DNA of 54,626 bases. Source: a virus (taxonomy: Duplodnaviria > Caudoviricetes). Shown one piece after another: positions 17,851-48,388 of this stretch (its first letter is position 1; each line of letters opens with the position of its first letter). A model generated the notes under the pieces. The model ran no database searches and was not told the DNA's origin. It worked only from the letters and a program-made list of their open reading frames with translations. The stretch lies in the IMG/VR virus record IMGVR_UViG_3300014155_000001, positions 1 to 54,626 of that record, one strand, 5' to 3'. The position numbers were made by a program, and so were the translations under genes.

Positions 17851-18147
17851 TTGGGCACAATTTGTCACAACCTTTGGCACGGGTTTGGCACGGTTTAGAC
17901 CGATTAGGACAGACTAACGGCGGATTTAAGTTTGCGCGTTAAAGCCGGGTTTGGCTTAATGGTTGCGCGGGTTTGCTTGTTTTTGGCGGTGTTTTCTGTC
18001 TCTTTCTCAAATGCCCGTTTCTGGTTTTCCGCACCATCCGAGACTTGCCTCGCCCAAATTTGGCTTTGCCCTGTCCTTATTGTGCGAATTGAACTATTTT
18101 CAGTTTTCTTCATTTGTGCTCTTGACTTCGTGGCACAGGTTTGGCAA
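17851..18147. other. Putative attP region with integrase arm-type repeats
   Basis: TTTGGCAC-like direct repeats at 17851, 17861, 17873, 17884, 18131 and 18140, upstream of the integrase. Confidence 0.45.
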
Positions 18148-18159
18148 ATTAAAGGCACC

Positions 18160-19380
18160 ATGAAAGCCAAAAAAGAATGGCCTAAGACAGTGCGGGTTGG
18201 CAACGTTTCTGTTCAGGTCTATAAACGTTTAACAGGTTCGGGCAATGTCGGTTTCCGCATTGCTTTTTTGGACACTGACGGCAAGCGCAAGTTTGAATCG
18301 TGCAGTGATGAAACGCAAGTGATTACCCTCGCCACAAAAAAAGCTGAAATGCTATCAACGTTTGGCGCGCGTGTCGCTGGCACGTCGGGCGATCAAATTG
18401 CGGAGTTCGTCCGCCTCGGTGACGTGCTCAAACCGTTTGCTGTCTCGGTCGCTGCGGTCGTTACGCGCGCGGCAACTTGGTTGCAGCGTCACGGCACGCT
18501 TGACGCAATAGACTGCGCTTTGATTACCGGCCCGGCCTTGGCGGGTGTTGCAATCACGCCGCGCACGGTTCCCGCTGCGGTCGCGGAATTGCTCGCCCAA
18601 AAGCGCGCAAACAAAATGTCAGAAGCTTATTGCAGAGACATCGAATTCCGCCTGCAAAACAAATTTGCAAAGGCTTTTACCTGCAACGTGGACACCGTTG
18701 AAACGTCACAGTTGCAAGCGTGGCTTGACGCTCGCAACATGCCAGCGTCCACTTATCGCAATTTCGGGCGCTTGCTTAATACGCTGTTTGAATTCTGCAA
18801 ACGGCGGAATTACTGCACAAATAATCCGGCGGCAGACCTTGAAAAGCGGAAAGTCAACGGTGGCGATGTGGTGATTTATTCCCCGGACGAAATGCGGAAG
18901 CTGCTTGAAAAGTCTGACAACGGGTTTCAACTCATGCTGGCCGTGTGCGGTTTTGCCGGTATCCGCACGGCGGAATTTATGCGGCTTACTTGGGAAGATG
19001 TCTGTCATGTGCCGGGGCATATCGAAGTGCCGAAGGGCAAGGGCAAAAACAAAAATCGGCGGCGACTTGTGCCAATCTCACCGAACTTGGCCGCATGGAT
19101 TGCTCTCCACCCCGCTAGAAAAGGATTGCTCTGGCCAGATCAAAAGCGAGTTGATGACGTGCAAAGACGGTGCGGAAAACTGGCTGGCGTACCGTGGAAA
19201 AAAAATGCACTCCGCCATTCTTTTTGCACGTATAAAACGGCCCTGTCCGGCGACATTGCCCGGACATCCCTTGAAGCCGGCAACTCCGTTAAGATGATTG
19301 AGGAACATTACGACCGAGTGGTTACGCAGGAAGCCGCGCGGGAATGGTTTGCTATCATGCCACCGGCCAAGCCGGTTTAG
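18160..19380 (+). CDS. int: Tyrosine recombinase / integrase
   Basis: FAGIRTAE (R), KGKNK (K), NALRHSF and AGNS..MIEEHY (Y); start at MKAKKEW after TTGACT-N17-CAAATT. Confidence 0.95.
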   Translation: MKAKKEWPKTVRVGNVSVQVYKRLTGSGNVGFRIAFLDTDGKRKFESCSDETQVITLATKKAEMLSTFGARVAGTSGDQIAEFVRLGDVLKPFAVSVAAVVTRAATWLQRHGTLDAIDCALITGPALAGVAITPRTVPAAVAELLAQKRANKMSEAYCRDIEFRLQNKFAKAFTCNVDTVETSQLQAWLDARNMPASTYRNFGRLLNTLFEFCKRRNYCTNNPAADLEKRKVNGGDVVIYSPDEMRKLLEKSDNGFQLMLAVCGFAGIRTAEFMRLTWEDVCHVPGHIEVPKGKGKNKNRRRLVPISPNLAAWIALHPARKGLLWPDQKRVDDVQRRCGKLAGVPWKKNALRHSFCTYKTALSGDIARTSLEAGNSVKMIEEHYDRVVTQEAAREWFAIMPPAKPV

Positions 19381-21325: not shown

Positions 21326-21590
21326 TTTCGGACGGACAGTTTTTGATTTGTTCCAAGTAACAGGAAATGCAAAGTTTTTTCAGCTTCGGATGATGGTTGT
21401 CGGCGAACCAGACGGGGCAGTTACAGTCACAGCAAACGCCCTCATAATTCTGGACGCCTTCAACCGGGTGGGTGGTACAGACCTGAAATTCGGTATTGGC
21501 CGGGATGGAATGGCCGGGGAAAACGGCCATTCCTTCACGGTTCAGGATTTCGGCCAGTTCCCGGATTTCCCTTTCCTGTTTTTCATCCAT
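21270..21590 (-). CDS. Hypothetical Zn-finger protein
   Basis: CCDCNC.VW...LCISC; ATG 6 nt after a TAAAAT -10 element. Confidence 0.65.
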   Translation of the reverse strand: MDEKQEREIRELAEILNREGMAVFPGHSIPANTEFQVCTTHPVEGVQNYEGVCCDCNCPVWFADNHHPKLKKLCISCYLEQIKNCPSENVANEFSLAIAALVRKRN

Positions 21591-21596
21591 GCCGGG

Positions 21597-21625
21597 ATTT
21601 TAGCCGTTCATGGTGGTGGTGTCCA
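21597..21625 (-). promoter_or_regulatory. Promoter TGGACA-N17-TAAAAT with CCACCACCATGA box, leaderless
   Basis: Near-consensus elements; box in the spacer. Confidence 0.65.
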
Positions 21626-21633
21626 CGCTAATT

Positions 21634-21991
21634 TGGTGCCCTCCCGTTAAGGAAGCCTGACGAGTTTCCAGTTGAAAAACGCAAAAACGTAACTTGTGTC
21701 AGGACATTCGCCGTCCATTAGGTTCCGGCGTTACATCCTTGCTCACTTGCAACTTGCGACCTTGATTATATTGAGCCTTGCAACCTTCGGTCTTGAACCG
21801 TGAGTCTTTATCGGTCAAACACGGCGTGAAGCCGGGTTTGCGGTTGATAATGGGAATTGAACCCACATATCCAGATTTCAAGTCTGGTGTCCTACCATTG
21901 GACTATATCATCACCATTGCTGGTGTTGGTTGACAGCTTGACGTTGCTGCCGACGTTGCATTTTGCTGGTTTTTATCTCTCACCGTAGGGC
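21634..21991 (-). ncRNA. Large structured ncRNA (~360 nt) with ACCA 3' end and embedded tRNA-like domain
   Basis: Nested long-range stems, 6-bp pseudoknot, GCAA tetraloop and CAAG repeats; begins 5 nt after the stop of the DIP1984-like gene. Confidence 0.75.
21842..21912 (-). tRNA. tRNA-like domain, anticodon UGA, short variable loop, no own CCA
   Basis: D-arm GTCC-AATGGTA-GGAC; anticodon arm CCAGA-CTTGAAA-TCTGG; T-arm GTGGG-TTCAATT-CCCAT; acceptor stem has an A2:A71 mismatch. Confidence 0.7.
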
Positions 21992-21995
21992 GAAA

Positions 21996-22523
21996 TTAAG
22001 GTATCAAATCGGTGGTGGCGTTGGCCACTTCCAAGGTGCGGTCAATGATAGACGGTTCGGAACGGAATAATTCGATTTTTTTGTCCCGTTCCAACGGGTC
22101 AAAACAGCGAATGAGTTTGACTTCAATGGGCTGGCCATTGGGCTGACTGGATGGTATCCGGCCTTCGCGCAAGCCCCGGTCGGTAAGCCCGGACCATGCG
22201 GCCAGTTCAAAACCGGCGAGATCACGGCGGCGGTGAATCCACTCGGCAATCGTTTTGGTGACAGGTTTGCCGTCCAGTTCAATGGTGACTTCCGTGTGCA
22301 GGTTGGTCCGCTGGATGGCCAGCCGCAATTCGAGGATTTTTTTGCAAATATCCCCGATGGATTGCAGCCATTCGGAAACCTGCGCCGGCTGGTCTTTGTA
22401 GAGGGGCGTTTCGTGGCTCAGATAGGCACAGTGGGTTTTGACCTTGTTGGTCAGGTCATCGCGTTTGACGGCCAGTTCCTTGATGAGTTTCATGGCCTCA
22501 ATAATTTTCATGGTAGTTTTCAT
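21996..22523 (-). CDS. DIP1984/DUF6847-like coiled-coil protein
   Basis: MKIIEA...AIQRTN..T.V...TIAEWI.RR..L...ID..L...NATT.L pattern. Confidence 0.7.
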   Translation of the reverse strand: MKTTMKIIEAMKLIKELAVKRDDLTNKVKTHCAYLSHETPLYKDQPAQVSEWLQSIGDICKKILELRLAIQRTNLHTEVTIELDGKPVTKTIAEWIHRRRDLAGFELAAWSGLTDRGLREGRIPSSQPNGQPIEVKLIRCFDPLERDKKIELFRSEPSIIDRTLEVANATTDLIP

Positions 22524-23332: not shown

Positions 23333-23524
23333 TTATTTTCCGGGTGTTACTCTTGTCACGCCCTCGATGTTGATTAGTTCTTTGAGCACATACAAGCCGG
23401 CACGTTTTTTTACGCCGTGCGTTGTAGCGTCAAACGGCTGTTTCGTAACGCTCAGGTACTCATCGGATGTTCCTTCGTCCTCGATGGTGACGACCACTGT
23501 TTGTGGGAGTTTTTTTGTTTTCAT
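23333..23524 (-). CDS. Hypothetical protein
   Basis: MKTKKLPQ start, coupled to the vWA gene stop. Confidence 0.55.
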   Translation of the reverse strand: MKTKKLPQTVVVTIEDEGTSDEYLSVTKQPFDATTHGVKKRAGLYVLKELINIEGVTRVTPGK

Positions 23525-24219
23525 TTTGGATGTATTGAAGGTTGGGCTACTGGCGTTTCTTCCTCGGTGGTAGAACCCGGTCCCCACAAGTTTTGTGCTG
23601 AACAATTCACGTTCCCCGTGGAACAGGCATAAGCCACCGTTGCGCCCGCGAACCGTCCATAAGCCTTGCCGGTGTCGTGATAGGTCGTGCGCAATACGTT
23701 GCTGGCACCAACAGTGCCGGCAGCCATGACGGTGGTTGCCGCCCAGCCGGTGATGCCCATGCCGATGTAGGCAAATGTCCAGTGCGCCTCGTCCTCTTTC
23801 TTTTTGATAAGAACCTTGATGCTGTCGCTGTTCCATTCCTTGGACATATTTTCCTGCCCGTCAGTCAGGGTGACGAACAAAACTTTGTATTTGCCCGTGG
23901 CCTTAGCTTCGGTGGCGCGGATGGTTTTGCCAAGGGTAAACGCGCGCGGGGTGTAGGTTTCGGCTGTCAACAACCGCACGTCCTTGAGCGGGACGGCGTC
24001 GTGAATGATGTCAATGGCTTCGGAATCAAACTGCGTGAGGGTGAAACGCATGGTGCCGTCATCCTTGGCGCGCAGTTCTTTGATGTAGTGATTGAAACCC
24101 TTGATGGTTTCAGCCTTGCAGACTTCCATTGATCCCGTCCGGTCCAGCAGGAAGGCTACGAGGGTGGGTTTGTTGTCGGTTTGAACTTTGGTGGTTTTCT
24201 TTTTGGTGGTTTTTTTCAT
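23521..24219 (-). CDS. von Willebrand factor A (vWA) domain protein
   Basis: FLLDRTGSM (MIDAS-like), LTDGQEN and W.F.YIG motifs. Confidence 0.88.
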   Translation of the reverse strand: MKKTTKKKTTKVQTDNKPTLVAFLLDRTGSMEVCKAETIKGFNHYIKELRAKDDGTMRFTLTQFDSEAIDIIHDAVPLKDVRLLTAETYTPRAFTLGKTIRATEAKATGKYKVLFVTLTDGQENMSKEWNSDSIKVLIKKKEDEAHWTFAYIGMGITGWAATTVMAAGTVGASNVLRTTYHDTGKAYGRFAGATVAYACSTGNVNCSAQNLWGPGSTTEEETPVAQPSIHPK

Positions 24220-24235
24220 AACGGTGGTGGTGGGT

Positions 24236-24523
24236 TTACGTGCGTTTTGAGGCAACGGCTTCGGCCTGGGCATTGATGTTGTACAGGGTGGCTTTGAGTT
24301 GGCAGGTGTAGGATTCGGCACGGGCCGGGTTTAATTCTTTCAACCGGGCGGCTTGCCGGATCACCCGGCTGGCGTCCTTTTGAAGCTCTTTCAGTTCCTC
24401 GTAATTATACATGGTGGAAACAAGGACAATGTTTTCAATACGGCCCTCATATTCTCCCTGTCCGTTGCAATCCGGGCAGGTAATGGTGCCTTCACCACGG
24501 CATTCTTCGCATTGACATTTCAT
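24236..24523 (-). CDS. DnaJ-type Zn-finger protein
   Basis: CEECRGEG...CPDCNGQG. Confidence 0.7.
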   Translation of the reverse strand: MKCQCEECRGEGTITCPDCNGQGEYEGRIENIVLVSTMYNYEELKELQKDASRVIRQAARLKELNPARAESYTCQLKATLYNINAQAEAVASKRT

Positions 24524-24924
24524 GGTTGTGTTGGTGGTGGATTGGACAAAGACGGTCCAACCTTCATCGTGGTTTCGACCGCCAGTAAAAATTCCCGGAT
24601 GTCATGGACGATATGAACGGTGGTTTTGAGCTTGTTCACTTCCGTTATCCATCCTTGTTGTGCCATTGACAGTTTCTCGCCGGGACGCTTGCACTCGACC
24701 AGCATGAATCTGGTTTCGGGCAGATAGATGGCAAAATCCGGCACGCCAAGTTGGTTGCGGGTCGCTTTGTCCATCCGTGAATGAATGTATTTCCAGCGCG
24801 GCCATTGGGTATCGCAGTAGTCCATTATTTCGGCGTGCAGTTCTCTTTCCAACGGCGGGTCCGCATTGGGCCGGTTGAGCCGGGCCTGCATTTGCTCGAA
24901 TTGAAACCGGGTGATGTCGCTCAT
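24520..24924 (-). CDS. VRR-NUC (PD-(D/E)XK) nuclease
   Basis: E..LH...GVPDF...VECKR..EKLS..Q..W. Confidence 0.85.
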   Translation of the reverse strand: MSDITRFQFEQMQARLNRPNADPPLERELHAEIMDYCDTQWPRWKYIHSRMDKATRNQLGVPDFAIYLPETRFMLVECKRPGEKLSMAQQGWITEVNKLKTTVHIVHDIREFLLAVETTMKVGPSLSNPPPTQP

Positions 24925-25205
24925 AGCTTTTTTACAAACCGTTTGCACGCCGGCCAGTTGGCGCGGTGATCCGTGCCCGGCCCGTTGGTGTCCCCGCGCA
25001 GGAGGCACTTGAAATAGGTGTTGGCATACCCGCCTTTGCGCAGAAACAGCCGGCAGTTTTTGCAAACTTCCTTTTCCGGGCTGGGACCGTAAAGCCGGAC
25101 ACAAGGATTGGGGCATTCATGCTCATGTTGTTGCGCGTCCTTGAACCACGTCAATTGCGGGTCGTTTTCCGGTGGGTCATTTAGAACTTTGCCGGGATAT
25201 TTCAT
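24921..25205 (-). CDS. Hypothetical Cys-rich protein
   Basis: CKNC...YFKC..RG.T.GPGTDHR..WPAC. Confidence 0.65.
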   Translation of the reverse strand: MKYPGKVLNDPPENDPQLTWFKDAQQHEHECPNPCVRLYGPSPEKEVCKNCRLFLRKGGYANTYFKCLLRGDTNGPGTDHRANWPACKRFVKKL

Positions 25206-26376: not shown

Positions 26377-27141
26377 TCATTTTTGTCCCTTTTGTTGTAG
26401 CTGCTGTTTGAAACATTCGACGGCATAGGGCGTGGCGTTCCGCGCCAGCTTGTCCACCTTGGCCGAATGCGCCAGGAGCACAGCCGTTGACCAACAGGCC
26501 AAAATTTTTGATTCGGCAAGCTGCCCGACGAATGGCTCGATGATGGTTTGCAGGCTGCGGGGTTTCAGCTTGGCCAGTTCCACCTTGCAGTTGTCATAGA
26601 ACCAGGGCGGGTCATCGGAAATAATCCGGTTGGCCAGTTTCAAGGCGGTGAAGGTCGGGTTCATCTTTTTTTTATCAATCAAACGCGCACGCGCGCGTGC
26701 GCGCGTTTGATCAATCAAACTTGATTTTGATTTTGACTTTGATTGGCATTGCATCCGCATTGCATCCGCATCATGCGTTTGCATTGCGGTCGCATTGCGG
26801 TCGCATCCCCAACGGGCGGCGGCGGCGATTTTGGCCGATTGGACTTTTTGGGCGTGTTTTTCCTGACTGCGGGATACTGTTTTTAACGTGCCGACATGCA
26901 GGAAACGTCCCCCTTTGGACAGCCAGCCTTTGGTCATCAATTCCCGGCGCACGGACGGCCACTGCTGGTGGGTGACACGGCTGATTTCCGCCAGGGTGTT
27001 AGCGTCGTCCACGGGCGGAACGCCAGTGGCCCAAATGGTGTCACAGAGGCGGCGGTGGGCTAATTCGCAATGCGGTCGCATTCCGACCGTATCGGCCAGC
27101 ATCACCTTGGCCTCATAGGGAATGTAAAACAGGTCGTTCAT
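26377..27141 (-). CDS. Replication initiator (DUF1376/YdaU-like)
   Basis: Y.P.....LADT..M...E...RL.D..W N-terminus; internal iterons and SKSKSKS linker typical of lambdoid O-type initiators. Confidence 0.75.
   Translation of the reverse strand: MNDLFYIPYEAKVMLADTVGMRPHCELAHRRLCDTIWATGVPPVDDANTLAEISRVTHQQWPSVRRELMTKGWLSKGGRFLHVGTLKTVSRSQEKHAQKVQSAKIAAAARWGCDRNATAMQTHDADAMRMQCQSKSKSKSSLIDQTRARARARLIDKKKMNPTFTALKLANRIISDDPPWFYDNCKVELAKLKPRSLQTIIEPFVGQLAESKILACWSTAVLLAHSAKVDKLARNATPYAVECFKQQLQQKGQK
26678..26806. repeat. Putative replication origin: five 11-bp iterons, TTGATT hexamers and a palindrome
   Basis: TGCATCCGCAT x2, TGCGTTTGCAT and TGCGGTCGCAT x2 (26750-26806); TTGA(T/C)T x4 (26721-26744); inverted repeat 26678-26711; extra iteron at 27071-27081. 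Confidence 0.75.
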
Positions 27142-27386
27142 CAGCCTTCGCGCTGGCGCAGGAAATTTTGTTTTACCCAGGCGTCGGCTTCCGCCAGCGG
27201 AATCTGTACGTTGCGCCGGCTGATTTTCAGGTGCGGCATTCCCACCTTGAGCCACTTCCAGACCACGTCTTTTTTTACGCCCCACCGGGAGCCATATTCC
27301 GGCACCTTGAGCACGAGCCGGATGTCCACGGTGCCGGGCGCACTGCTGGTGGTGGGTACTGAGGCGGTTTTTGAGATTTTTTTCAT
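27141..27386 (-). CDS. Excisionase/MerR-like helix-turn-helix protein
   Basis: EYGSRWGVKKDVVWKWLKVGMPHLKISRRNVQIP...DAW. Confidence 0.75.
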   Translation of the reverse strand: MKKISKTASVPTTSSAPGTVDIRLVLKVPEYGSRWGVKKDVVWKWLKVGMPHLKISRRNVQIPLAEADAWVKQNFLRQREG

Positions 27387-28540: not shown

Positions 28541-28617
28541 TGTAGGGTGGAGCAGCTTGGAAGCTCGTCGCGCTCATAACGCGAAGGTCGTTGGTTCAAA
28601 TCCAACCCCTGCAACCA
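28541..28617 (+). tRNA. tRNA-Met(CAT), initiator-like variant
   Basis: Full 77-nt cloverleaf with encoded CCA; A11:U24 pair; loop CTCATAA; anticodon stem TCGCG/CGCGA. Confidence 0.95.
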
Positions 28618-33198: not shown

Positions 33199-36100
33199 TT
33201 ACGGCGCAGCGATCGCCCAAGGCGCGGCTTGGCGGATGTCGGTGGCGCTGGTCACGGACTCAGCCCCGTAACGGGCTTTTTCGGCAGGGGACATTTTCCG
33301 GGCCAAGGCCGCTTGGTCGGACTTGGGCAACCGTTTGAACATATAAATGTCCATCGTTGAAGCATCCCGTGCCGCGCGCTTGGTTTCATCCGCTGTCCGC
33401 GACTCGTAGGGTTTCAGCCGTTCGCCCGTCCGCTTATGGTACAATTCTGAAATCTGGTTTTGAATCGAACTGCGCGTGATGTAGGCCGGCGCGGGCATAA
33501 TGCCGACATAAGGCGCGGCCAGCCGTGCCGGGGTAGCGCCGGCTTCCGCCGATTTCCGCGCGCCGCGTGTCCAGAACGGTTCAAAAGACTTGATGACATA
33601 CTTGCTCACCTGTCCGGCCTGTTGTGCGGCAGGCGCGTTCGGATTGCGGATTTCATACCCGTAAAAGTCCCGATTGTTGGCCACGTCATTGATGACCGAT
33701 AGCAAGGGATGCGATTTATGCCAAACCGTAGTCAACGGCTGTTTACTGTAAGCCAGAAGGTCTTTAACATAGGTAGGCAGTAAAAAGCGTTCGTCGTTTC
33801 CATCCTTGTCTTTGCGTCCGGTGCGGAATGCCAGGAAGTCCATGCCGGTTGGCGTCTGGCCGGTAAAAGCGTAAGTCAAAACTGCATTGGCGGTCGCCAC
33901 CGTTGCTAGTAGCGACATGGTGTAGGCCACGCGGTCAGGGATATTTTCGGGTAGCTTGCCGGTTTTGTGCCATTCCTGGAAAAATTTTGCGGCATCCGGG
34001 AACGCTCCGCCAAGTTCAGCGATGGTGCCGCCCGACCAGCCCGGTGCCCGGACCAAACCTTGCACAACATTCTTTGCCGTGTTGTTGGAAAACAGGCGGT
34101 TGTAACGGACCTGACCCAAGCGGGCATCCACCCGGTTCCACGCCTGCCGGAATTGCGGCGTCAATTCTTCCAATGGCTTGCCAGGATTTTGCTCAATGAT
34201 GCGCCAAGCGAGGTCCGCGAACACACCGGCTTTTTGCCGGGGCACGAGATAGTCCATGATGGGTTTCATCATCAGTTCGGTCAAAGCAATGGGAGAACGT
34301 GCCGCCGCCTTGATCCGGCTACCGGAATACCAGTCCCGGACCATTTGGGTGGTCTGTTCGGTTTGCATTCCGTGTTCCAACTTGTAACCGCCGCCGCCGA
34401 GTTCGGTAGCTTTCACGACTTGAGCAATGCGCGGATCAATCACGCCATCGGGATTGCGCCAGGCGTTCAAGACCTTGTCTCCCGTCATCGCGGTTTTGAC
34501 ACTGGCAACGGTCCAGTTTTTTGCTGTGTTTGCCAAGTCAGCCAGGGAACGGTTGCCGCGCAACACGCCGTAAACGTCTTTAATCAGTGTCGCCCCGGCA
34601 GACACCTGTACGTCACCCGTGGTAAAGCCGGCGTGGAACGCGCTGCCCATACCCAATTGCGATTGATTCAAGGCATTGGCCGTGCCCATCCAAGTGCGGT
34701 AAAGTCCACCGAAGTATTTATTATTGTAAATGCTGGACGAAAGGTAATTGTTGACGATGTCGCCCGTGGCCTTCGGCACGATGCGATAGCCTTTGATTGG
34801 TAGGCCGACATATTTCTCGCTGGTAAGTTCTTCCAGTTCGATTCCCGGCTTAATGTCAGCCAGCCCTTTGAGTTCGGGTTTGCTATGAATGAAACCGTCA
34901 AACACCTTGAACACCGTCGGCGCAACTTCCTGCATCTTTTCCGGTGCATGAACGTAGGCTTCGACCATTTGCGCAATCTGTTCCGTCTTTTTGCGCGGGT
35001 CGCCGCCGCGACTGCCGGTGAGGTCCGCAATGTTGCGAAGTTCCTCTTTGATTTTGGCGCGCTGTTTCTGTGACGCTTCTTTGGTCTGCACACCCTTTTT
35101 GCCCAAGCCAACGGCTTCGGTAACAAACGTTTTCCAAAAGTTGTAGCGGTAATCCAACTGGTGCCCAATCTCGTGAGCCAAAACGCTCGTCTCGGTGGCA
35201 AACCGGGTGCGGACGAAATCCTGACTCTGATAGGACAGGCCCAAGGCGCGATTGCCGGGACCGGGCGGGAACTTCATGGACCGTTCGTGTTTGATGCCCA
35301 GCTTCCCGGCAAAATCCAGCAAGCCCTCATACACGGCCTTGTCAATATGTTCAGGAACGGTGACAGTAGGCGGGCCGTAGATGGTGCCGTACTTGTCATT
35401 CAAACGGACCCAGCCTTCCGGTGTTTCCTCGTAGGGATTTATGATTTTCAGTTCGCCGTCAGCTTTAAGGTGCTGGAAAAATTCATTGGCCATGATGGAC
35501 TTGTCCATTTCGGCCAACTTGCCTTTGACCAGGTCAATGGGATTGTTTGAAATGGGACGCAAACCAAACTCCGCGCCGGTCATAATGTCGTCGAACACCT
35601 TTTCTTTGCGGAAACTTTCCCGGCCCTTAAACGGACGGCGGGTAAAGTAGGCCATCATGTCCGCTTCTGATCCAGTGCCGGCTTTGATGAACTGGTCCAC
35701 ACGCGCCTTGACCCAGGCTTTTTGTGCGGGCGTGGCGGCATTAACGTCCGAGTTTTTGGGAATCATGCCTTGTTTTTCCGCTTCTTCCATTGCGGCATTG
35801 AAAGCCAGCCGAGATTCATGGGTCCACATGCCAGGGAAATAATTATCACGGACGGATTGGACGGACGCGCCAGCAGCATCGAGTTTGTCCAACCGTTCCT
35901 GAAACAACTTTTTAATTTTGTAGGCAGCGAGTTGAAACCGGCCCGTCAGCGGACGGCCTTGCGACATATCCGACATGAATTTGATGCCAGGATTTTTGTC
36001 GGGCGTCAGTTTCTCGTTGTGAACGCCCAGCCGGTCGAAAAACTTTGACACCGCACGCAGCGCGAAGGCCGTGGCTTCCGCGCGCCGGTTCATGGCACCC

Positions 36101-39100
36101 AACTTGGCACCCAGCTTTTCTGCCGCGCGTAAGTGTGCTGGACTGGTGGCGGTTGGTAGCAGCAAGGATTGAATCCCCTGCTTGGCGGTGGAGATAATTT
36201 GTAAACCGGGGGTTTTGGTTTTTACCAGTGTGGATAATTGTTGCGGCGTGCTCGCCACCGGGACCGGGTTTGGCGCGGCGGTTGTAGCACCGCCAAAACC
36301 CAAAGTGCGGATGCCTCCTGCGCCGCCGGCGCGCTGGTCAAGCAACGCGATAACATCTTTGAGCCGGGCACGCTGTTCCTTGCCGTAACTTTTGTAGGAT
36401 TTCGGGTCTGACCCCATGATGGCCACTTGACGGCGTAATGTGGCAGCGGCCTTGGCCGGATCGCCCCCGGCCATGCGCTGTGCGGCGTCGGCGGATTTGC
36501 CAGGGTCCACTTCGCGGACAACTTCTTGAATGCCGAACAATTCGTTTTGGGTCAACGTCTCGCCGCCGAAAGCGGTTTGTTCGGTTTTGGGCGGGACAAA
36601 CTTGGCTTCCTGGCCAACAAGATTGAAGGCGGTTTCAAGTCCGAGGCCGGGAAGTTCGCCAGAGGCGGCAGCAAGTTTAGCTTTTGATTCAGCCTTCGCT
36701 TCAAGTATGTCACGATATGCTAGGTCTGTGGCCGTGTATTTGGAACGGTCGAGGATGAATTGCTCGGATACGCCACGAGTCAACGCATCATTGATTGCGG
36801 TTTTGACTTGGTCCTCGGTCAAGCCAGCTAATTTCAGGCGGTCGGGCCGGAACGCTGTTCCTGCCGCGCTCCATTCATTGCCCATCTTGGCTTTTGTGCT
36901 GGCCCAAAAGTCCGTCAGGAATTTGGGCCAACGTACTTCCGGTGCTTTTCCGCCGACTTCGGCGACGAGGTCGGAATGGAGGGGCCAATTCCGCCAGCGG
37001 TCTAGTTCGGATTTCAGTTCGCCGACACGTTTGGCAACGCCTTCCGGGTCGCGCACGTCCACGCCTAACTTGCGGGCAAGTTCAGGGCGTTTGACCGCGC
37101 CTTGGACGGCGCGGATTTGTTCGGAAATTTGGCTTTGCTGTTCGGTGGCTCGCGCGGCCATTTCTTCGGCCTGTTTGATGGCGGCGTCATCGCGGCCAAA
37201 AAGGTCCACCTGTTCTGTTTGCCCGCCAGTTTGAGACTGGACGGCCTTGATGAAGTTTTCGATTTCAGCGGGCGAGCGGCCCTTGCCCGCCTGTTTTATC
37301 CCCAAAGCTTGCAGGTTTGCATCGTCGGGCGCGGCGGCGGCGATGGCTACGGCTTTTTCGGTGGCGATTTTGTCGGCGGACCAAAGGGAATAGAGGTCAT
37401 CGGAGGCAGATCGCGCCAGTCGGAAGGCTTCACGGCCTTTAACGCGGTCGAGTAAGCCGCGCGATTGTGCTTCTTCTTCCGTGAGTTCTGGAACGTATTT
37501 GAAGTAATGGGCATAATCTGCAATGGTGCCTTGTCCGTCCCGGATATTAGCTTCGGCGTCAAATGTCAAAGCCTTTTCCTTGGTGAAACCATCCGCTTCC
37601 CGGACAATTTGGACGGGTATGGTTTTTTCGCCGCTTCGTTTGGCCAAATCCAGACGGTGCCGGCCCGTAATAATTTCATGGTCGCCGTTGACCCGTTCCC
37701 AAAGAACAATGGGGGCCGTGCCCAAACGTTGATATTCCCCGGTAAGCCGTTCGTTGGGAACAACGCCAGTTACGGGGTCCGCATCGGCTTTGAAATTCGG
37801 AACGTCTTTGGAGAATTTAATTTGCTCTACGGGGAATTCGGCCATCGGGTGTTTCGATGTATCTGTAATCATCGAAGTGCCAAGCGGCGGCGCGACGGAT
37901 TCCGGGATCATGCCGACTGCGGACTCAATGTTGCGCGCGGATTCAATCGCCTCGCGTGGAAATTGGCCCATGCCGGTCATTTTGAATTCGGGGGTCGCAC
38001 CAATCTGATTTCTTTCCTCGGTGGTTTTGGCTGCCTTGAACTTTTCCAAAGCAGCGTTACCAATCTGGCTGATTTGTCCCCGTGCTTTTTCCAGGGCAGC
38101 AATGACCGGCGCGGCTTTGGCATCGCCCAACTGCCGCAAATACAAACCAATTTGGTAGGCGGTTTCCTGATTGTAAAAATCGTTGCGCGTGTGACGCTGG
38201 AACAAGTTGACCCACCATTGCGGATCGTGAACAGCATCCCCAGCGGCGTGAAAATAACGCGCCGAAATCGAGGGGCGAGTCACGCCTTTGGAAACAAATG
38301 CTTCTTCTGGTTTGGTGAATTGGTCCGGGGTTGGTTCTGGCGGCGTCAGTGGTACTTCACCGGGCGGCGCTCCGGGTATTGGGCCGCTTCGTGCGCCAGT
38401 TGGCGGGCTTGGCTCAGGGGCGGGCACTTGCCGTGCGCTTTCTTCCGGGATTGTGGGTTGCTGCACAGGCCGAAAAACCGTTTCTGTTTCTTTGTGTAGG
38501 GCATAGTCTTGTTGGGGTGTGGTTGTTTCGCCCCAAGCCAATTTGCGCAGGTCGCGGGCTTGTTCCCGTGACAGTTCGGCTTTGGGGAAAAGGTCTTGAA
38601 TCTGCCGGATGGTTTTGGCTTGAGCGTTGCGAATGGTTTCAACGGAAGTTTCACGCGGTTCAACAGGCGTGCCCGGCACTGTTGCCCGTGGCAGCATCCG
38701 GCCTGGGTCCGGCACGGTTGGAGAGGGAATGCCGCGAGTGGGCACGCCGGGAATCGGTCCCAAGTCAGGCGGCGGTTCAGGCACGGCCCCAAGAGGACGT
38801 TGCATGACCGCGCCAGTGGCCAGCGGGCCTTGGAATGGTCCTGGTTTGGCGGGTGTAAATGAGCGTTTTAGGCCAATGGCACCAACTACGGAAAAACCAA
38901 CTGTTTGAATACCTTCGGAAACCAAACTGGTAATTTTGTCCGGGTCTTGCTGGTCCTTTGGTTTGCCGAGTTCATCGCCCAAAGCCGTAGCAATTTGGGG
39001 TGTGTCACTCATCATTTTGGCGGTGAAGCCGGCGAGAATTAACTTTTGAGCGGCGGCAGGCAGGTTGCCAATGGCCAGCATGGGCGCGGTGCCTGCGATA

Positions 39101-39642
39101 CCTTGGGAAATTTTGCCGACCGTTGCCCAAGTCGGAGCGTCCGCCGAAGCCTCTTTCAATTTCTCATCAATTGGAAGCGGTTCACCCAAGGCAGCAGCAG
39201 CCAGGTTATGAAGCTCGTAGTATGGCTCGCTGCCAGCTTTGGTTTCAGCCACGTCCGCTGGAATAGCGCGGGCAACATTCCCGGCATAGGACAGTGCCCG
39301 GTTGACTTGTTTTCCACCTGGAATAGCTTCGATAATTGCGCCGGGTGCAGCGGTGGCGGCACGATACACGTTGGCGGCAGATTCATCCGAACCGCCCCGG
39401 CCCGAAACGATGTCCGTTGGCGTCATGGACAGGTCACGGCTGGGATCAGTTGTGCCGGTGGCCAAGTAGGACTTTTGGTACGGGTCGAGTTGGACTTTGG
39501 ACGTATCGAAACGCGGCGCGGGCGGGGCAGCTTTGGCGTAAAGTTCCCACGGTTTTTTCGCAGCAAACATTTCCCAAGGCTTTTGGGTCGCCTCGTCGTC
39601 GCCAGTGGCCACGGGGGGCGCGATGTCCATTGTGTCGGCCAT
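33199..39642 (-). CDS. Large internal virion/ejection polyvalent protein with ParB-like and HExxH metallopeptidase domains
   Basis: PIVLW...IITGRHRL.LAKR (ParB/Srx); LAHEIGHQLD...E..A (zincin); start placed at MADTMD. Confidence 0.8.
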   Translation of the reverse strand: MADTMDIAPPVATGDDEATQKPWEMFAAKKPWELYAKAAPPAPRFDTSKVQLDPYQKSYLATGTTDPSRDLSMTPTDIVSGRGGSDESAANVYRAATAAPGAIIEAIPGGKQVNRALSYAGNVARAIPADVAETKAGSEPYYELHNLAAAALGEPLPIDEKLKEASADAPTWATVGKISQGIAGTAPMLAIGNLPAAAQKLILAGFTAKMMSDTPQIATALGDELGKPKDQQDPDKITSLVSEGIQTVGFSVVGAIGLKRSFTPAKPGPFQGPLATGAVMQRPLGAVPEPPPDLGPIPGVPTRGIPSPTVPDPGRMLPRATVPGTPVEPRETSVETIRNAQAKTIRQIQDLFPKAELSREQARDLRKLAWGETTTPQQDYALHKETETVFRPVQQPTIPEESARQVPAPEPSPPTGARSGPIPGAPPGEVPLTPPEPTPDQFTKPEEAFVSKGVTRPSISARYFHAAGDAVHDPQWWVNLFQRHTRNDFYNQETAYQIGLYLRQLGDAKAAPVIAALEKARGQISQIGNAALEKFKAAKTTEERNQIGATPEFKMTGMGQFPREAIESARNIESAVGMIPESVAPPLGTSMITDTSKHPMAEFPVEQIKFSKDVPNFKADADPVTGVVPNERLTGEYQRLGTAPIVLWERVNGDHEIITGRHRLDLAKRSGEKTIPVQIVREADGFTKEKALTFDAEANIRDGQGTIADYAHYFKYVPELTEEEAQSRGLLDRVKGREAFRLARSASDDLYSLWSADKIATEKAVAIAAAAPDDANLQALGIKQAGKGRSPAEIENFIKAVQSQTGGQTEQVDLFGRDDAAIKQAEEMAARATEQQSQISEQIRAVQGAVKRPELARKLGVDVRDPEGVAKRVGELKSELDRWRNWPLHSDLVAEVGGKAPEVRWPKFLTDFWASTKAKMGNEWSAAGTAFRPDRLKLAGLTEDQVKTAINDALTRGVSEQFILDRSKYTATDLAYRDILEAKAESKAKLAAASGELPGLGLETAFNLVGQEAKFVPPKTEQTAFGGETLTQNELFGIQEVVREVDPGKSADAAQRMAGGDPAKAAATLRRQVAIMGSDPKSYKSYGKEQRARLKDVIALLDQRAGGAGGIRTLGFGGATTAAPNPVPVASTPQQLSTLVKTKTPGLQIISTAKQGIQSLLLPTATSPAHLRAAEKLGAKLGAMNRRAEATAFALRAVSKFFDRLGVHNEKLTPDKNPGIKFMSDMSQGRPLTGRFQLAAYKIKKLFQERLDKLDAAGASVQSVRDNYFPGMWTHESRLAFNAAMEEAEKQGMIPKNSDVNAATPAQKAWVKARVDQFIKAGTGSEADMMAYFTRRPFKGRESFRKEKVFDDIMTGAEFGLRPISNNPIDLVKGKLAEMDKSIMANEFFQHLKADGELKIINPYEETPEGWVRLNDKYGTIYGPPTVTVPEHIDKAVYEGLLDFAGKLGIKHERSMKFPPGPGNRALGLSYQSQDFVRTRFATETSVLAHEIGHQLDYRYNFWKTFVTEAVGLGKKGVQTKEASQKQRAKIKEELRNIADLTGSRGGDPRKKTEQIAQMVEAYVHAPEKMQEVAPTVFKVFDGFIHSKPELKGLADIKPGIELEELTSEKYVGLPIKGYRIVPKATGDIVNNYLSSSIYNNKYFGGLYRTWMGTANALNQSQLGMGSAFHAGFTTGDVQVSAGATLIKDVYGVLRGNRSLADLANTAKNWTVASVKTAMTGDKVLNAWRNPDGVIDPRIAQVVKATELGGGGYKLEHGMQTEQTTQMVRDWYSGSRIKAAARSPIALTELMMKPIMDYLVPRQKAGVFADLAWRIIEQNPGKPLEELTPQFRQAWNRVDARLGQVRYNRLFSNNTAKNVVQGLVRAPGWSGGTIAELGGAFPDAAKFFQEWHKTGKLPENIPDRVAYTMSLLATVATANAVLTYAFTGQTPTGMDFLAFRTGRKDKDGNDERFLLPTYVKDLLAYSKQPLTTVWHKSHPLLSVINDVANNRDFYGYEIRNPNAPAAQQAGQVSKYVIKSFEPFWTRGARKSAEAGATPARLAAPYVGIMPAPAYITRSSIQNQISELYHKRTGERLKPYESRTADETKRAARDASTMDIYMFKRLPKSDQAALARKMSPAEKARYGAESVTSATDIRQAAPWAIAAP

Positions 39643-39644
39643 AG

Positions 39645-40460
39645 TTATTGTGAGGCGGGCACCGCTTCCCAATTTTTCGGGTCGGTCAGTTCGCCGCCTT
39701 TGAATGTATAACCATTCACCACGTCACCGGCTTTCGGCAAGTTGGACGCGGATGCGGCGGCAGGCGCAGCGGGCGCGGGCGCAGGTTGCGCGGCCCGGAA
39801 AGCAGAGGCAGGGTCGGTGCCGACAGGAACTTTGACACTTTCGGTCAGTTGCGTTTTTTCTGTACCGCGTTTGTAGGGTGTGCCGGGTGTAATCCCCGTG
39901 GTGATACCAAGCCGGGAGAGCAACCCAATTTGGGAAGTTGTAGCCGGTTTGGACGCAACGGCATCACTTGTGGAATGCCGGGTCATGGTTTCTTCTGGTC
40001 CCGGTTTGGAAACACCACTGGCAAGGCCCGGCTCCCAGGCGCGCGGGTATTTTGCCAACGCTTCGGCGGGCGACATGCCACCGGCAATGGACATTGCGTA
40101 ATTCTGGCGGTCGGCCAAAGTGCTGGCCTTGTCCTGTGTGGCCTGTTGCAATTTTTGCGATTCAAGGTTGAGCCGGTTTTTGGCGATGCCAAGGGTTGCC
40201 TGATGATAGGCTTGAGCTACTGCCGCCTGGGTTTGTGAGCGTTGGAAATTGGCGACCAATGTTTCGCGGCGGATTTGCGCTTCCATCGCGGCCTGCCGTT
40301 CCGAAGCGTCGAGCCGTTGCTGTTCCATGCCAAGTTGGGCGTTGGCTTGTGCGGTGTGCTGGGCCAATTCTTGACGTTGCAAGTTGACTCGTGCGCCTTC
40401 GGCGGCGGCTTGGCCGAATTGGGCCGGTGTTACATCCAACCAACTAGGAATTGTAGGCAT
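39645..40460 (-). CDS. Putative DNA ejection protein
   Basis: Q/A-rich coiled coil; C-terminal G.V.NGY.FKGG..DPKNWE. Confidence 0.65.
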   Translation of the reverse strand: MPTIPSWLDVTPAQFGQAAAEGARVNLQRQELAQHTAQANAQLGMEQQRLDASERQAAMEAQIRRETLVANFQRSQTQAAVAQAYHQATLGIAKNRLNLESQKLQQATQDKASTLADRQNYAMSIAGGMSPAEALAKYPRAWEPGLASGVSKPGPEETMTRHSTSDAVASKPATTSQIGLLSRLGITTGITPGTPYKRGTEKTQLTESVKVPVGTDPASAFRAAQPAPAPAAPAAASASNLPKAGDVVNGYTFKGGELTDPKNWEAVPASQ

Positions 40461-46585: not shown

Positions 46586-48388
46586 ATGATTTACAAGGAT
46601 CAATACGGCCAGAAATGGCCGCGCAAACCTGATGCCCTTCAAGTCGAGTTCAACATGATTCGGCGCAAGTGGAAAGAGCACCTGACCGGACAGGATGCCA
46701 CCGCTGATTTGCTCAAACATTATCTGAACGCGCGCAAACTGGTCTGGCCCGACCGTTACTGTCACCGCTGGTCGGAACTGATTTACCGGGAAATCATCAA
46801 GAACAGCATCACGATTTTAATGGGCGCGGCCAGCAGCCAGAAAACGAGCCACGCGAGCGAGTTCAGTCTGATTGATTACTGGTGCTACCCGGACGAAACG
46901 GCGGTCCTGGTCAGCAGCACAACCAAGGACAAGCTCGAAGATGCCGTTTGGGGTGAAATGAAAAGTTTGTGGAAAGCGGGCCGGAAAAATTACTCATGGC
47001 TGGCGGGACACCTGATTGAATACAAACAGCGCATTGCCACTGACGACCGCGCGGCGGACAGTGAGGATGCGCGTGACTTGCGCAAGGGGATTTTTTGCAA
47101 AGCCTGTTATGTAGGCAAGCAATGGGTGGGGCTGGGCAACTTCGCGGGCATCAAACAAAAACGGTTTCGTTTCCAGTGTGACGAATTGCAGTTCATGGCC
47201 CCAACCTTCCTTGGCTGTCTGCCGAACATGCGGAGCAACACGGGCGCGGGCGGTTTGAAGGTGGTTGGTTCCGGCAATCCGCGCCATGATCCCAATGACC
47301 AGCTTGGAATAGTGGCCGAACCGTTGGACGGTTGGCCTCAAGTGGATGGTCTGGAAAAAACTACCGTTTGGCCGATCAAACTCATGGGCGGCGCGTGTGT
47401 GAACCTGATTGGTTTGGACAGTCCAAACTTTGACCAGGCACAAGACCTTTACCGGGGATTGATTGGGCACGAGTACGAAAAAATCATCGCGCATGATTAC
47501 GGAAAGAATTCGCCTGAATATGAGACGCAAATTATGGGCCGGATGCGGATTGGTCTGGAACATTCGCGCGTCATCACCCGGCAATTGTGCCGGCTGCACC
47601 GTGCCCATGACCAAGCGGTGTGGTCCGGCAAGCCGCGCACGCGGATTTACTCGGTGGACCCGGCCTACGGCGGTGGGGACCGCTGCGTAGGCGGATGGAT
47701 TGAATTTGGCGAGGGCGTAGAGGGCACGCAAATTTTGCGCGTGAATCCACCGCGCACCTTGAAAATTGTTGTGAACCCGAACAACCCGCCAGAGGATCAG
47801 ATTGCCGACCTGGTCAAAACGGACTTGGACCAATACGGCATCCCGCCTGAAAATTGTTTTTATGATTCATTCGGCAAGGGCACGGTCGGTTTTGCCTTTG
47901 CGCGCAAGTTCGGATCAAATTCGCCCGTGCCGGTGGATGCCGGCGCGCGGACGACACAACGCCCGGTACGGTTTGATTTGTGGGTCACAGAAAAGGATGG
48001 CCGTCGCCGGCTCAAGCGGTGCGAGGAACACTATTCCAAGTTCATTACCGAAATGTGGTTCTCGGTGCGCGAGACGATTGAGAGCGAACAAATGCGCGAA
48101 CTGCCAGAGGACGTGATGGCCGAAGGGTGCTGGCGCGAGTACCAGACCGTGGCCGGCGACAAGATTGAAGTCGAGCCGAAGGATGATTTGAAGGAACGCA
48201 TGGGCAAGTCCCCGGACCTGTTCGACTGGCTGGCGATTGCCCTCGAAGGCGCGCGGCGGCACGGCTTCAAAATTAAACGGCTTGGCGCAGACGTGCCCGT
48301 TGAGAATTCAACCTGGGACTGGTTTATGAAGCACCAGGACAAGCTTGGGCAACAGCGCCGCCAACACGAGTTGGTGTTTGGGGGTTAG
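46586..48388 (+). CDS. terL: Terminase large subunit
   Basis: Walker A-like GAASSQKTS, Walker B FQCDE, coupling motif GNP; nuclease VDPAYGGGD...GKSPD..D. Confidence 0.9.
   Translation: MIYKDQYGQKWPRKPDALQVEFNMIRRKWKEHLTGQDATADLLKHYLNARKLVWPDRYCHRWSELIYREIIKNSITILMGAASSQKTSHASEFSLIDYWCYPDETAVLVSSTTKDKLEDAVWGEMKSLWKAGRKNYSWLAGHLIEYKQRIATDDRAADSEDARDLRKGIFCKACYVGKQWVGLGNFAGIKQKRFRFQCDELQFMAPTFLGCLPNMRSNTGAGGLKVVGSGNPRHDPNDQLGIVAEPLDGWPQVDGLEKTTVWPIKLMGGACVNLIGLDSPNFDQAQDLYRGLIGHEYEKIIAHDYGKNSPEYETQIMGRMRIGLEHSRVITRQLCRLHRAHDQAVWSGKPRTRIYSVDPAYGGGDRCVGGWIEFGEGVEGTQILRVNPPRTLKIVVNPNNPPEDQIADLVKTDLDQYGIPPENCFYDSFGKGTVGFAFARKFGSNSPVPVDAGARTTQRPVRFDLWVTEKDGRRRLKRCEEHYSKFITEMWFSVRETIESEQMRELPEDVMAEGCWREYQTVAGDKIEVEPKDDLKERMGKSPDLFDWLAIALEGARRHGFKIKRLGADVPVENSTWDWFMKHQDKLGQQRRQHELVFGG

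Follow-up and report, generated by a model that had tools for sequence, protein, structure and literature searches.

The 54,626-nucleotide window analysed here, IMG/VR record IMGVR_UViG_3300014155_000001, is a whole contig with phage features. On its minus strand, a gene for a 175-residue protein of the DIP1984 fold is followed at once by a large folded RNA that belongs to a real, structured, sense-strand family tied to one protein family. The account that I favour is that gene and RNA constitute an undescribed phage RNA-protein module, in which the two are co-transcribed and dimers of the protein bind the RNA, an account whose chances I hold to be evenly balanced. According to it, the RNA, which starts 5 nt after the stop codon in the window and ends 9–30 nt before the start codon in the other gene order, would be transcribed together with the gene and would become a discrete stable species whose 5' end is set in some relatives by a hammerhead ribozyme or by a promoter. 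Protein dimers would then bind, most likely at the AAG(G) repeats that the RNA displays or at its invariant single strands, to give a ribonucleoprotein; the binding to the repeats I infer. In RNAs that carry a true tRNA in their linker, this tRNA would be released by RNase P and 3' processing, while the closing stem and the pseudoknot would hold the two halves of the RNA together.

The association of gene and RNA holds well beyond the window. The IMG/VR database contains 37 homologues of the 175-residue protein (43–64% identity), and when the spacer of the window served as query, most of their loci proved to share with it some 175 nt of conserved sequence, on the same strand. A covariance model of this 3' domain (R1) has a single match in the window, at 21631-21819 (153 bits), and each of the 30 distinct viral loci searched yielded one copy, the other 7 of the 37 being exact duplicates. 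It likewise found one copy per contig in 11 of 11 loci from metagenome-assembled genomes (MAGs) that had been reached by a protein profile. Gene and RNA occur together, on the same strand, in all 61 gene-holding loci examined, namely the 37 viral and 11 MAG loci found via the protein, four viral loci found via the RNA pattern alone (L068, L076, L170, L171) and nine metagenome loci among the matches listed. In pattern scans, the AACTTCNNAGGCTTCC pattern hit at least 120 loci, two of them real among the matches listed, and an 18-letter pattern gave 8 real loci out of 26 in viral contigs and at least 12 out of at least 118 in metagenomes. The 12 RNA-positive metagenome loci among the matches listed comprise nine with the gene and three others, two of which are too short or partial to judge.

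Two gene orders are found. The RNA follows the gene in most loci (in the window, it starts 5 nt behind the stop codon) and precedes it in a subgroup that includes L015, L028 and L037, where it ends 9–30 nt ahead of the start codon. The proposal of the first-pass annotation, made from the sequence alone, that the two belong together has thus held up: they are adjacent and co-oriented, in one order or the other, in every locus that holds the gene. Nothing else around them is constant. The other eight proteins around the window gene gave no tblastn match in any related locus, and an all-against-all comparison of the flanking open reading frames (ORFs) showed that, of 44 distinct loci, at most 4 have any other family in common, the ORF clusters of 13 and 7 loci being antisense shadows of the gene itself. 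Since no other neighbour is conserved, gene and RNA make up a self-contained module in otherwise unrelated phage genomes. In L032, L171, L228, L239, L285 and L287, the gene and the 3' domain of the RNA lie 0.8–1.65 kb apart.

Support for the fold of the RNA comes from its relatives; taken alone, the sequence has an ordinary folding energy (z -2.2). Covariation was counted on an alignment of 30 full-length RNAs made with MAFFT and not fitted to any structure (A4, 532 columns). Over 30 pairs, 88.3% of the cells are paired, in contrast to 69.0% in shuffled alignments (0 of 500 shuffles as high) and to 34–49% when partners are slid; cells changed on both sides number 179, versus 61.5 in the shuffles (again 0 of 500 as high). 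The discrete pseudoknotted RNA of about 360 nt that had been annotated directly after the stop codon is borne out by these figures, covarying structure being present beside the homologues in 30 full-length relatives. Lengths in the family range from 250 to 437 nt, with a median of 321 nt. Pairs 461:504 (AU17 GU10) and 516:521 (UG15) show that G-U is tolerated on the minus strand, so that the fold belongs to the sense-strand RNA.

The outline of the fold is that of a closed domain with a pseudoknot. In the closing stem P1, annotated as GCCCU (21991-21987) with AGGGC (21642-21638), every core pair covaries on A4; pair 6:527, for instance, is GC12 CG7 UA6 AU3 UG1 and is unpaired in none, and the duplex of an RNA's own strands has an energy of -7.6 kcal/mol as against -2.3 with the strands of other RNAs. 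The nested stem between CCAG (21969-21966) and CUGG (21671-21668) has 89.2% of cells paired and an almost even split between CG13 and UA12 at pair 29:496. A second nested helix, AAAAUGCA-ACGU (21964-21953) with ACGU-UUU-UGCGUUUU (21690-21676), varies in length and was therefore tested by duplex energy. Cognate strands average -7.9 kcal/mol, non-cognate strands -5.0 (Mann-Whitney p 5e-9), and the cognate partner is within the best three in 18 of the 30 RNAs. CCUGAC (21703-21698) and GUCAGG (21661-21656), which had been taken for the pseudoknotted helix, do pair (95.2%, with four pair types at 458:507, CG9 GC9 AU4 UA4), only they form a plain long hairpin, P3; the pseudoknot arises because the two 5' strands pair into the P3 loop.

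Smaller elements are less uniform. The CGCCG/CGGCG hairpin P2, also annotated at the outset, is a hairpin of differing sequence in most relatives (67.7% paired on A4) and is missing in one subgroup. P4 is 93–98% paired, without double changes, and H1 recurs by eye, in most relatives, as a hairpin with a similar loop. Two further local hairpins proposed at the outset, ACCA-GCAA-UGGU and CAAAC.CGGC/GCCG.GUUUG, would fall within the variable linker, next to the tRNA. The single-stranded AGAGAUAAAAAC block gave a hidden Markov model match in 31 of 43 loci, the others having, by eye, a variant form with matching closing stems. It lies 50–250 nt upstream of the 3' domain and, in gene-first loci, directly after the stop codon. 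Two relatives carry extra hairpins, L001 between the two blocks of AAGG units (L001:1098-1132) and L033 within an AGAGAUA/AAAAC motif (L033:3505-3650), and thereby show where the fold tolerates insertions. Among the aligned RNAs, that of the window alone has the ACCA which had been noticed behind the closing stem (A4 columns 529-532), and the tRNA-like reading of this end fails because ACCA is not conserved. The features of the window are collected in the table.

Features of the window (positions on the 54,626-nt stretch)
Feature	Position	Strand	Basis or remark
175-aa DIP1984-fold protein gene	21996..22523	(-)	ORF; fold model; alignment of 27 homologues
Whole structured RNA, P1 5' strand to P1 3' strand, 354 nt	21638..21991	(-)	covariation on A4; covariance model R1 match
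P1 5' strand GCCCU	21987..21991	(-)	pairs with AGGGC 21638-21642
Single-stranded conserved motif AGAGAUAAAAAC	21969..21980	(-)	A4 columns 17-26 invariant or nearly so
5' strands of both pseudoknot helices, CCAG then AAAAUGCAACGU	21953..21969	(-)	covariation and duplex energies
Hairpin H1, GGCAGC-AACGUCAA-GCUGUC, ACGnUA-like loop	21932..21951	(-)	sequence; by-eye comparison
Canonical 71-nt tRNA, anticodon UGA, short variable loop, inside variable linker	21842..21912	(-)	Rfam 67.6 bits; ARAGORN
Purine-rich single-stranded region, 8 AAG units in two blocks, last unit CAAGGAUG	21734..21810	(-)	no supported internal pairing
Variable hairpin P2 (CGCCG...CGGCG)	21709..21730	(-)	hairpin in most relatives
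Conserved GAAUGUCC directly before P3	21709-21702	(-)	
Long hairpin P3, CCUGAC/GUCAGG plus AGUU/AACU	21656..21703	(-)	covariation
P3 U-rich loop, receives two pseudoknot strands	21690-21668	(-)	
Conserved GGCUUCC, 3-bp hairpin P4 (CCU/GGG), P1 3' strand AGGGC	21638..21657	(-)	invariant alignment columns
Promoter-like site for next gene (21590-21270)	21597..21625	(-)	consensus scan 10/12; pattern match only; just outside RNA
Integrase	17932-19380		phage marker
Large terminase	46586-48388		phage marker
VRR-NUC nuclease	24520-25116		phage marker
DUF1376, weak match	26377-27285		window gene

Two plainer descriptions of the region were considered and rejected. It is not an ordinary intergenic region with a tRNA, since nhmmer and the covariance model show that the flanks of the tRNA are conserved and covarying. 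Nor does it hold a conserved small ORF: the 60-residue frame at 21699-21881 overlaps the tRNA, a sense ORF cluster over the RNA is shared by only 2 of 44 loci, and insertions and deletions are not multiples of three, which led to the rejection of this reading.

Between the tRNA and P2 lies the purine-rich region. The six CAAG motifs that had been pointed out in 21795-21738, the last four 7–8 nt apart, are there in the sequence, and in the 30 RNAs the median number of AAG units is 8, compared with 2.55 in shuffles. GGA persists in the final unit alone; elsewhere the sequence is AAGGC or AAGGU. The local hairpin GCUCA/UGAGC proposed here did not survive the pairing test (50.4% paired, 50.0% in shuffles), which leaves the repeat region unpaired. 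The same annotation had compared the repeats with the binding site of TRAP. TRAP is a ring-forming protein that recognizes 9–11 GAG or UAG triplets separated by spacers of 2–3 nt; like the TRAP-binding trp leader, and like CsrB/RsmZ, the window RNA carries many short purine-rich units on one molecule, but here the units are AAG(G) at intervals of 7–8 nt, GGA is kept in one of them, and the phage-encoded protein is by model a helical dimer, with no known ring and a median isoelectric point (pI) of 8.4. The analogy with TRAP is accordingly not supported, and of the proposed oligomer that binds the repeats in TRAP fashion it is the oligomer, as a modelled homodimer (0.79 versus 0.00, see below), that is retained.

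Such a row of units might serve as a decoy or sponge, whose AAG(G) units would titrate a host factor, be it a CsrA-like RNA-binding protein, the anti-Shine-Dalgarno end of the 16S rRNA, or a defence nuclease directed at tRNAs, with help from the phage protein. Eight to nine purine-rich units are unpaired, the best conserved of which, CAAGGAUGU, equals the core of the consensus obtained for CsrA by SELEX (systematic evolution of ligands by exponential enrichment). AAGG is complementary to CCUU of the 16S rRNA 3' end. The linker tRNAs with odd anticodons described below would also suit a decoy, and GOLLD, another large phage RNA, has been reported to bind ribosomes in pull-down assays. However, GGA is confined to the last unit, no hairpin loops present the units, four matching bases are weak evidence for pairing with 16S rRNA, Rfam gives no CsrB/Rsm match, and a sponge leaves an obligatory phage protein unexplained. 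I consider this explanation very doubtful.

The ORF of the protein has its conserved start, MKIIEAMK, at the second ATG (22511). Profile matches to Pfam DUF6847 (expectation value E 4.5e-4, 20.6 bits versus a cut-off of 27) and NCBIfam DIP1984_fam (E 3.8e-7, 30.4 bits versus 70) span the full length of the protein and stay below the curated cut-offs. The AlphaFold2 model (predicted local distance difference test, pLDDT, 93.6) consists of four long helices and two small sheets. In a Foldseek search of the PDB with this model, the sole significant match was 3kdq, the solved DIP1984 protein (E 1.3e-4, probability 1.00, template modelling (TM) scores 0.55/0.63, 22% identity), so that the annotation as a DIP1984-like protein holds at the level of the fold. 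Structural look-alikes in the Atlas include a row of the DIP1984 family (TM 0.61) and a cluster of the Siphovirus Gp157 family (TM 0.64). By sequence, neither the single protein nor a profile gave a match in the PDB; PADLOC gave none either, a BFVD fold search returned only uncharacterised phage proteins, and an N-terminal match to a PHROGs 'tail fiber' family (E 1e-5) is weak and was not trusted.

Modelled as a pair of identical chains, the protein forms a predicted homodimer: the ipSAE score is 0.79, as against 0.00 for the best of three controls, the runs share at least 98% of their contacts, and the pLDDT of the partner is at least 92. Of 30 proteins whose solved structures are pairs of one chain, 20 attain the same mark; of 23 with single-chain structures, 1 does. 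Homologues are numerous (1067 clusters at 90% identity, with E up to 1e-5) and all are named hypothetical; some carry PF20935, and the MAG bins that hold the module cover about ten phyla. By contrast, a tblastn search of 50,697 GenBank phage records did not find the protein, which may explain why the family went unnoticed.

A small dimeric protein beside direct repeats with a period of 7–8 bp also fits a DNA-level element, in which the AAGG repeats would be origin iterons or a protein-binding DNA site and the gene would encode the DNA-binding protein. The setting is an early or replication region, with the VRR-NUC gene and the weak DUF1376 match nearby, and the Gp157 cluster among the structural look-alikes points the same way. 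None of this accounts for the covarying long-range pairs, the tolerance of G-U on one strand, the pseudoknot, the co-oriented embedded tRNA, the putative hammerhead or the contigs from RNA libraries, and I regard a DNA element as highly improbable.

The linker between the two conserved domains of the RNA is variable and accommodates insertions. In the window, it contains a tRNA, at 21912-21842, that scores well above the Rfam gathering score of 29 and to which ARAGORN assigns the anticodon TGA. The 41 distinct RNAs with both ends defined fall into 19 with a normal tRNA, five with a circularly permuted mimic of a tRNA, six with just a T-arm-like hairpin and 11 with none of these; the L012 linker has two tRNAs. 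Permuted modules run in the order T arm, acceptor 3' strand, short loop, acceptor 5' strand, D arm, an arrangement that also appears in the minimum-energy fold of L166. ARAGORN calls a tRNA in the five permuted loci only after a program has swapped the halves, while 13 control loci gave 0 or 1 calls. With the Rfam model of YrlA the modules of L166, L007 and L028 score 40.7, 34.5 and 26.7 bits (gathering score 69). Because its contents are so varied, the linker behaves as a slot for exchangeable tRNA-like cargo, such as has also been reported for the linker of GOLLD. The recurring tRNA or mimic points to host tRNA or translation biology.

Some further observations concern these linkers. The permuted modules lie at L007:3590-3700, L166:846-970, L158:3110-3232, L026:3620-3740 and L028:2710-2832, the acceptor stem being capped by a short loop. 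Linker tRNAs are of many kinds, with anticodons that include TTA (an ochre suppressor) and ATT, AAT and ACT, which are rare in bacteria; odd anticodons in or near the linker are found at L009:3828-3903, L162:3480-3552, L165:2237-2312, L012:3744-3817, L013:3924-3999, L159:3099-3174 and L016:3606-3680, and one linker tRNA call has an anticodon of two bases. The window tRNA combines the anticodon UGA with a short variable loop, yet a long variable arm is characteristic of bacterial serine tRNAs. Over 51 nt, the body of the window tRNA shows 86% similarity to Gln tRNAs of Pseudomonas phages; that it is the orthologue of the Gln tRNAs of relatives was rejected, there being no such alignment. An intron in the tRNA was likewise discarded: no 3' half of a tRNA follows the element, and ARAGORN with introns permitted gave nothing new.

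The tRNA or tRNA mimic present in the linker of 24 of the 41 RNAs is shared ground with an explanation in which the RNA alone is the machine, of the GOLLD/ROOL type, its neighbour protein acting in the same pathway or being merely co-expressed without binding. Such an RNA might, for instance, self-assemble or carry phage tRNAs. GOLLD and ROOL are thought to act without protein, and the protein of the window shows no RNA-binding signature in profiles, folds or charge. Like the window RNA, they are encoded by phages or prophages, ornate, pseudoknotted, often near tRNAs and of unknown function. They differ in size (more than 800 nt for GOLLD and an average of 581 nt for ROOL, in contrast to the median here), and ROOL has no known partner protein, whereas here the DIP1984-fold gene is always adjacent. 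Rfam searches with E up to 10 gave no GOLLD or ROOL match in 21500-22100, nor did searches with E up to 1 in nine related loci. Moreover, so strict a coupling to a single gene, kept in both orders and in contexts that are otherwise unrelated, has not been reported for GOLLD or ROOL and is typical of RNA-protein pairs. An RNA that works without binding its neighbour is, in my estimation, unlikely.

The favoured RNA-protein module calls for a discrete RNA, and the relatives in which the RNA precedes the gene give some indication of its 5' end. In three of them (L165, L167 and L168), a hammerhead core (CUGAnGA, stem, CGAAAC, stem, GUC), read from the sequence, has its presumed cut site, GUC, exactly where the closing stem, and with it the RNA, begins; the background rate of this core is 0.017 per kb. 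It occupies L165:2152-2197, and in L167 and L168 it takes up the 40–42 nt that precede the RNA start. Rfam HH9 scores 28.3 bits on L165 (gathering score 52) and has no match at E up to 0.1 on L167 and L168. Stem I of the hammerhead would use the 5' strand of the closing stem, which suggests a switch of fold after cleavage. In L025, L030, L031 and L164, all RNA-first loci, promoter-like hexamers are found 3–7 nt upstream of the RNA. If the RNA begins with the closing stem, the positions of the hammerhead site and of the hexamers both fit. A run of U soon after the 3' strand was seen by eye in several relatives. In two wetland metatranscriptome runs, the contigs lying cleanly on the 1301 tested bases cover only 21695-21928 and 21671-21907, that is, stretches inside the RNA, the parts left uncovered in these runs not being evidence of absence; DNA runs cover the flanks of the RNA too, and runs X1–X3 may represent the source sample. 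These RNA contigs hint at a stable RNA.

Position next to a gene invites another explanation, in which the element acts in cis as an untranslated region (UTR) of the protein's own mRNA, a 3' UTR or a 5' leader according to the gene order, and controls its stability or translation, perhaps by autoregulation. In its favour, gene and RNA share one strand and nearly touch, with 5 nt between stop codon and RNA in the window and 9–30 nt between RNA and start codon in the other order, and the promoter-like sites upstream of the RNA in the RNA-first order also speak for it. Yet the same RNA is found on either side of the gene, which would be unusual for a translational operator; in metagenome loci the gene and the 3' domain are up to 0.8–1.2 kb apart, and in L171 about 1.65 kb; and the predicted hammerhead would free the 5' end of the RNA in three loci. 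Besides, some 320 nt with a double pseudoknot, near-invariant strands and an embedded tRNA are beyond the needs of known autoregulatory operators. A cis-acting role thus seems to me distinctly unlikely.

Rfam, searched over 21500-22100 with E up to 10, returned no match but tRNA and chance-level rows, so that apart from the tRNA no Rfam family covers the element. Transfer-messenger RNA (tmRNA), its two-piece permuted form included, with its protein SmpB resembles the module in a length of about 360 nt, paired ends, pseudoknots and a tRNA-like part; it differs in that the terminal ACCA of the window RNA is not conserved and no tag reading frame was seen, and neither ARAGORN nor Rfam found a tmRNA in the window. 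The permuted module of L166 scores weakly with beta_tmRNA (19.6 bits) and tmRNA_permuted (18.8 bits). YrlA is encoded beside its partner protein. YrlA with Ro60 is likewise modular, with a two-end closing stem and a permuted tRNA-like module (T arm, capped acceptor stem, D arm), but the window RNA carries a true tRNA instead and gave no YrlA or Y RNA match, and the outer, Ro-binding stem of YrlA is unmatched in the three relatives scored above. No Ro60/TROVE match was present among the scanned neighbours in the window, and in the flanks of the relatives, compared ORF against ORF and not with Pfam, no further gene family recurs.

The type III toxin-antitoxin system ToxIN is also similar in outline: here, too, mobile elements carry a protein of about 170 residues and, beside it in the same orientation, an RNA with repeats and a pseudoknot. 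The ToxIN repeats are tandem units of 34–36 nt that are cut apart, in contrast to units of 7–8 nt inside one large fold; the window protein, moreover, has the helical DIP1984 fold and is not ToxN-like. Among DIP1984/DUF6847 proteins, whose fold it shares without reaching the profile cut-offs, the window member represents a phage subfamily about 20 residues longer. No function is on record for any DIP1984/DUF6847 protein, and a literature search brought up, among the matches listed, no paper that held DIP1984 or DUF6847 or that dealt with an RNA. By every test run, the RNA is none of tmRNA, GOLLD, ROOL, Y RNA or a Csr-type RNA. Neither it nor the gene pairing has a described relative, and no published description of the RNA or of the gene-RNA pair was found; a 2023 catalogue that lists 10,006 candidates for structured RNAs in IMG/VR (PMC10690425) may hold pieces of the RNA, and its unnamed entries could overlap with the present family.

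Several points weigh against the proposed module. That the partner protein binds the RNA is something I infer, and the protein has no relative with a known RNA-binding role, the function of 3kdq being unknown; it is only mildly basic (net charge 0 to +5, with the median pI given above). The solved relative 3kdq may contribute to the success of the homodimer model. All loci belong to one protein subfamily (43–74% identity), so that the co-occurrence amounts to one lineage seen many times, though in differing genomic contexts. L267 holds the 3' domain, with flanks of 7.4 kb and 1.7 kb, and no gene. Its copy (L267:7463-7609), which lies beside unrelated sequence, is probably a remnant because the 5' domain is missing as well. 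Finally, RNA contigs cannot give transcript ends or strand, and DNA may contaminate RNA libraries.

The surroundings of the module in the window are those of a phage. Most of the proteins encoded there have no family match. Gene and RNA sit in a row of minus-strand genes, about 2.3 kb from the integrase gene. A 266-residue protein at 23521-24321 (-), with a match to phrog_7371 (E 3.5e-30), is not kept beside the module in relatives. The second tRNA of the window, a tRNA-Met (CAT), is on the other strand at 28541-28617 (+), 6.6 kb from the RNA, and an ORF of 2157 residues extends over 33199-39672 (-).

An RNA-protein module of this kind would be of interest in several respects. GOLLD and ROOL have known structures without a known function or partner; this RNA is small enough to handle, and a dedicated protein gene provides an experimental handle for pull-down, co-expression and cryo-electron microscopy. 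The family is common in environmental phages and unites three features seldom met in combination: a tRNA nested in a structured RNA, circularly permuted tRNA-like modules in phage DNA, and a hammerhead that apparently cuts the 5' end of a non-coding RNA. A more specific proposal, attractive if unlikely, is that it represents a new class of phage ribonucleoprotein in which a pseudoknotted scaffold RNA, held by a DIP1984-fold dimer, would display an exchangeable tRNA or circularly permuted mimic beside the comb of AAG(G) units, the particle acting on host tRNA, on translation or on tRNA-directed defences. If this proposal is right, the particle would give DIP1984/DUF6847 proteins their first function, and in its own function it would match Ro60-Y RNA or tmRNA-SmpB, although its components are not related to theirs.

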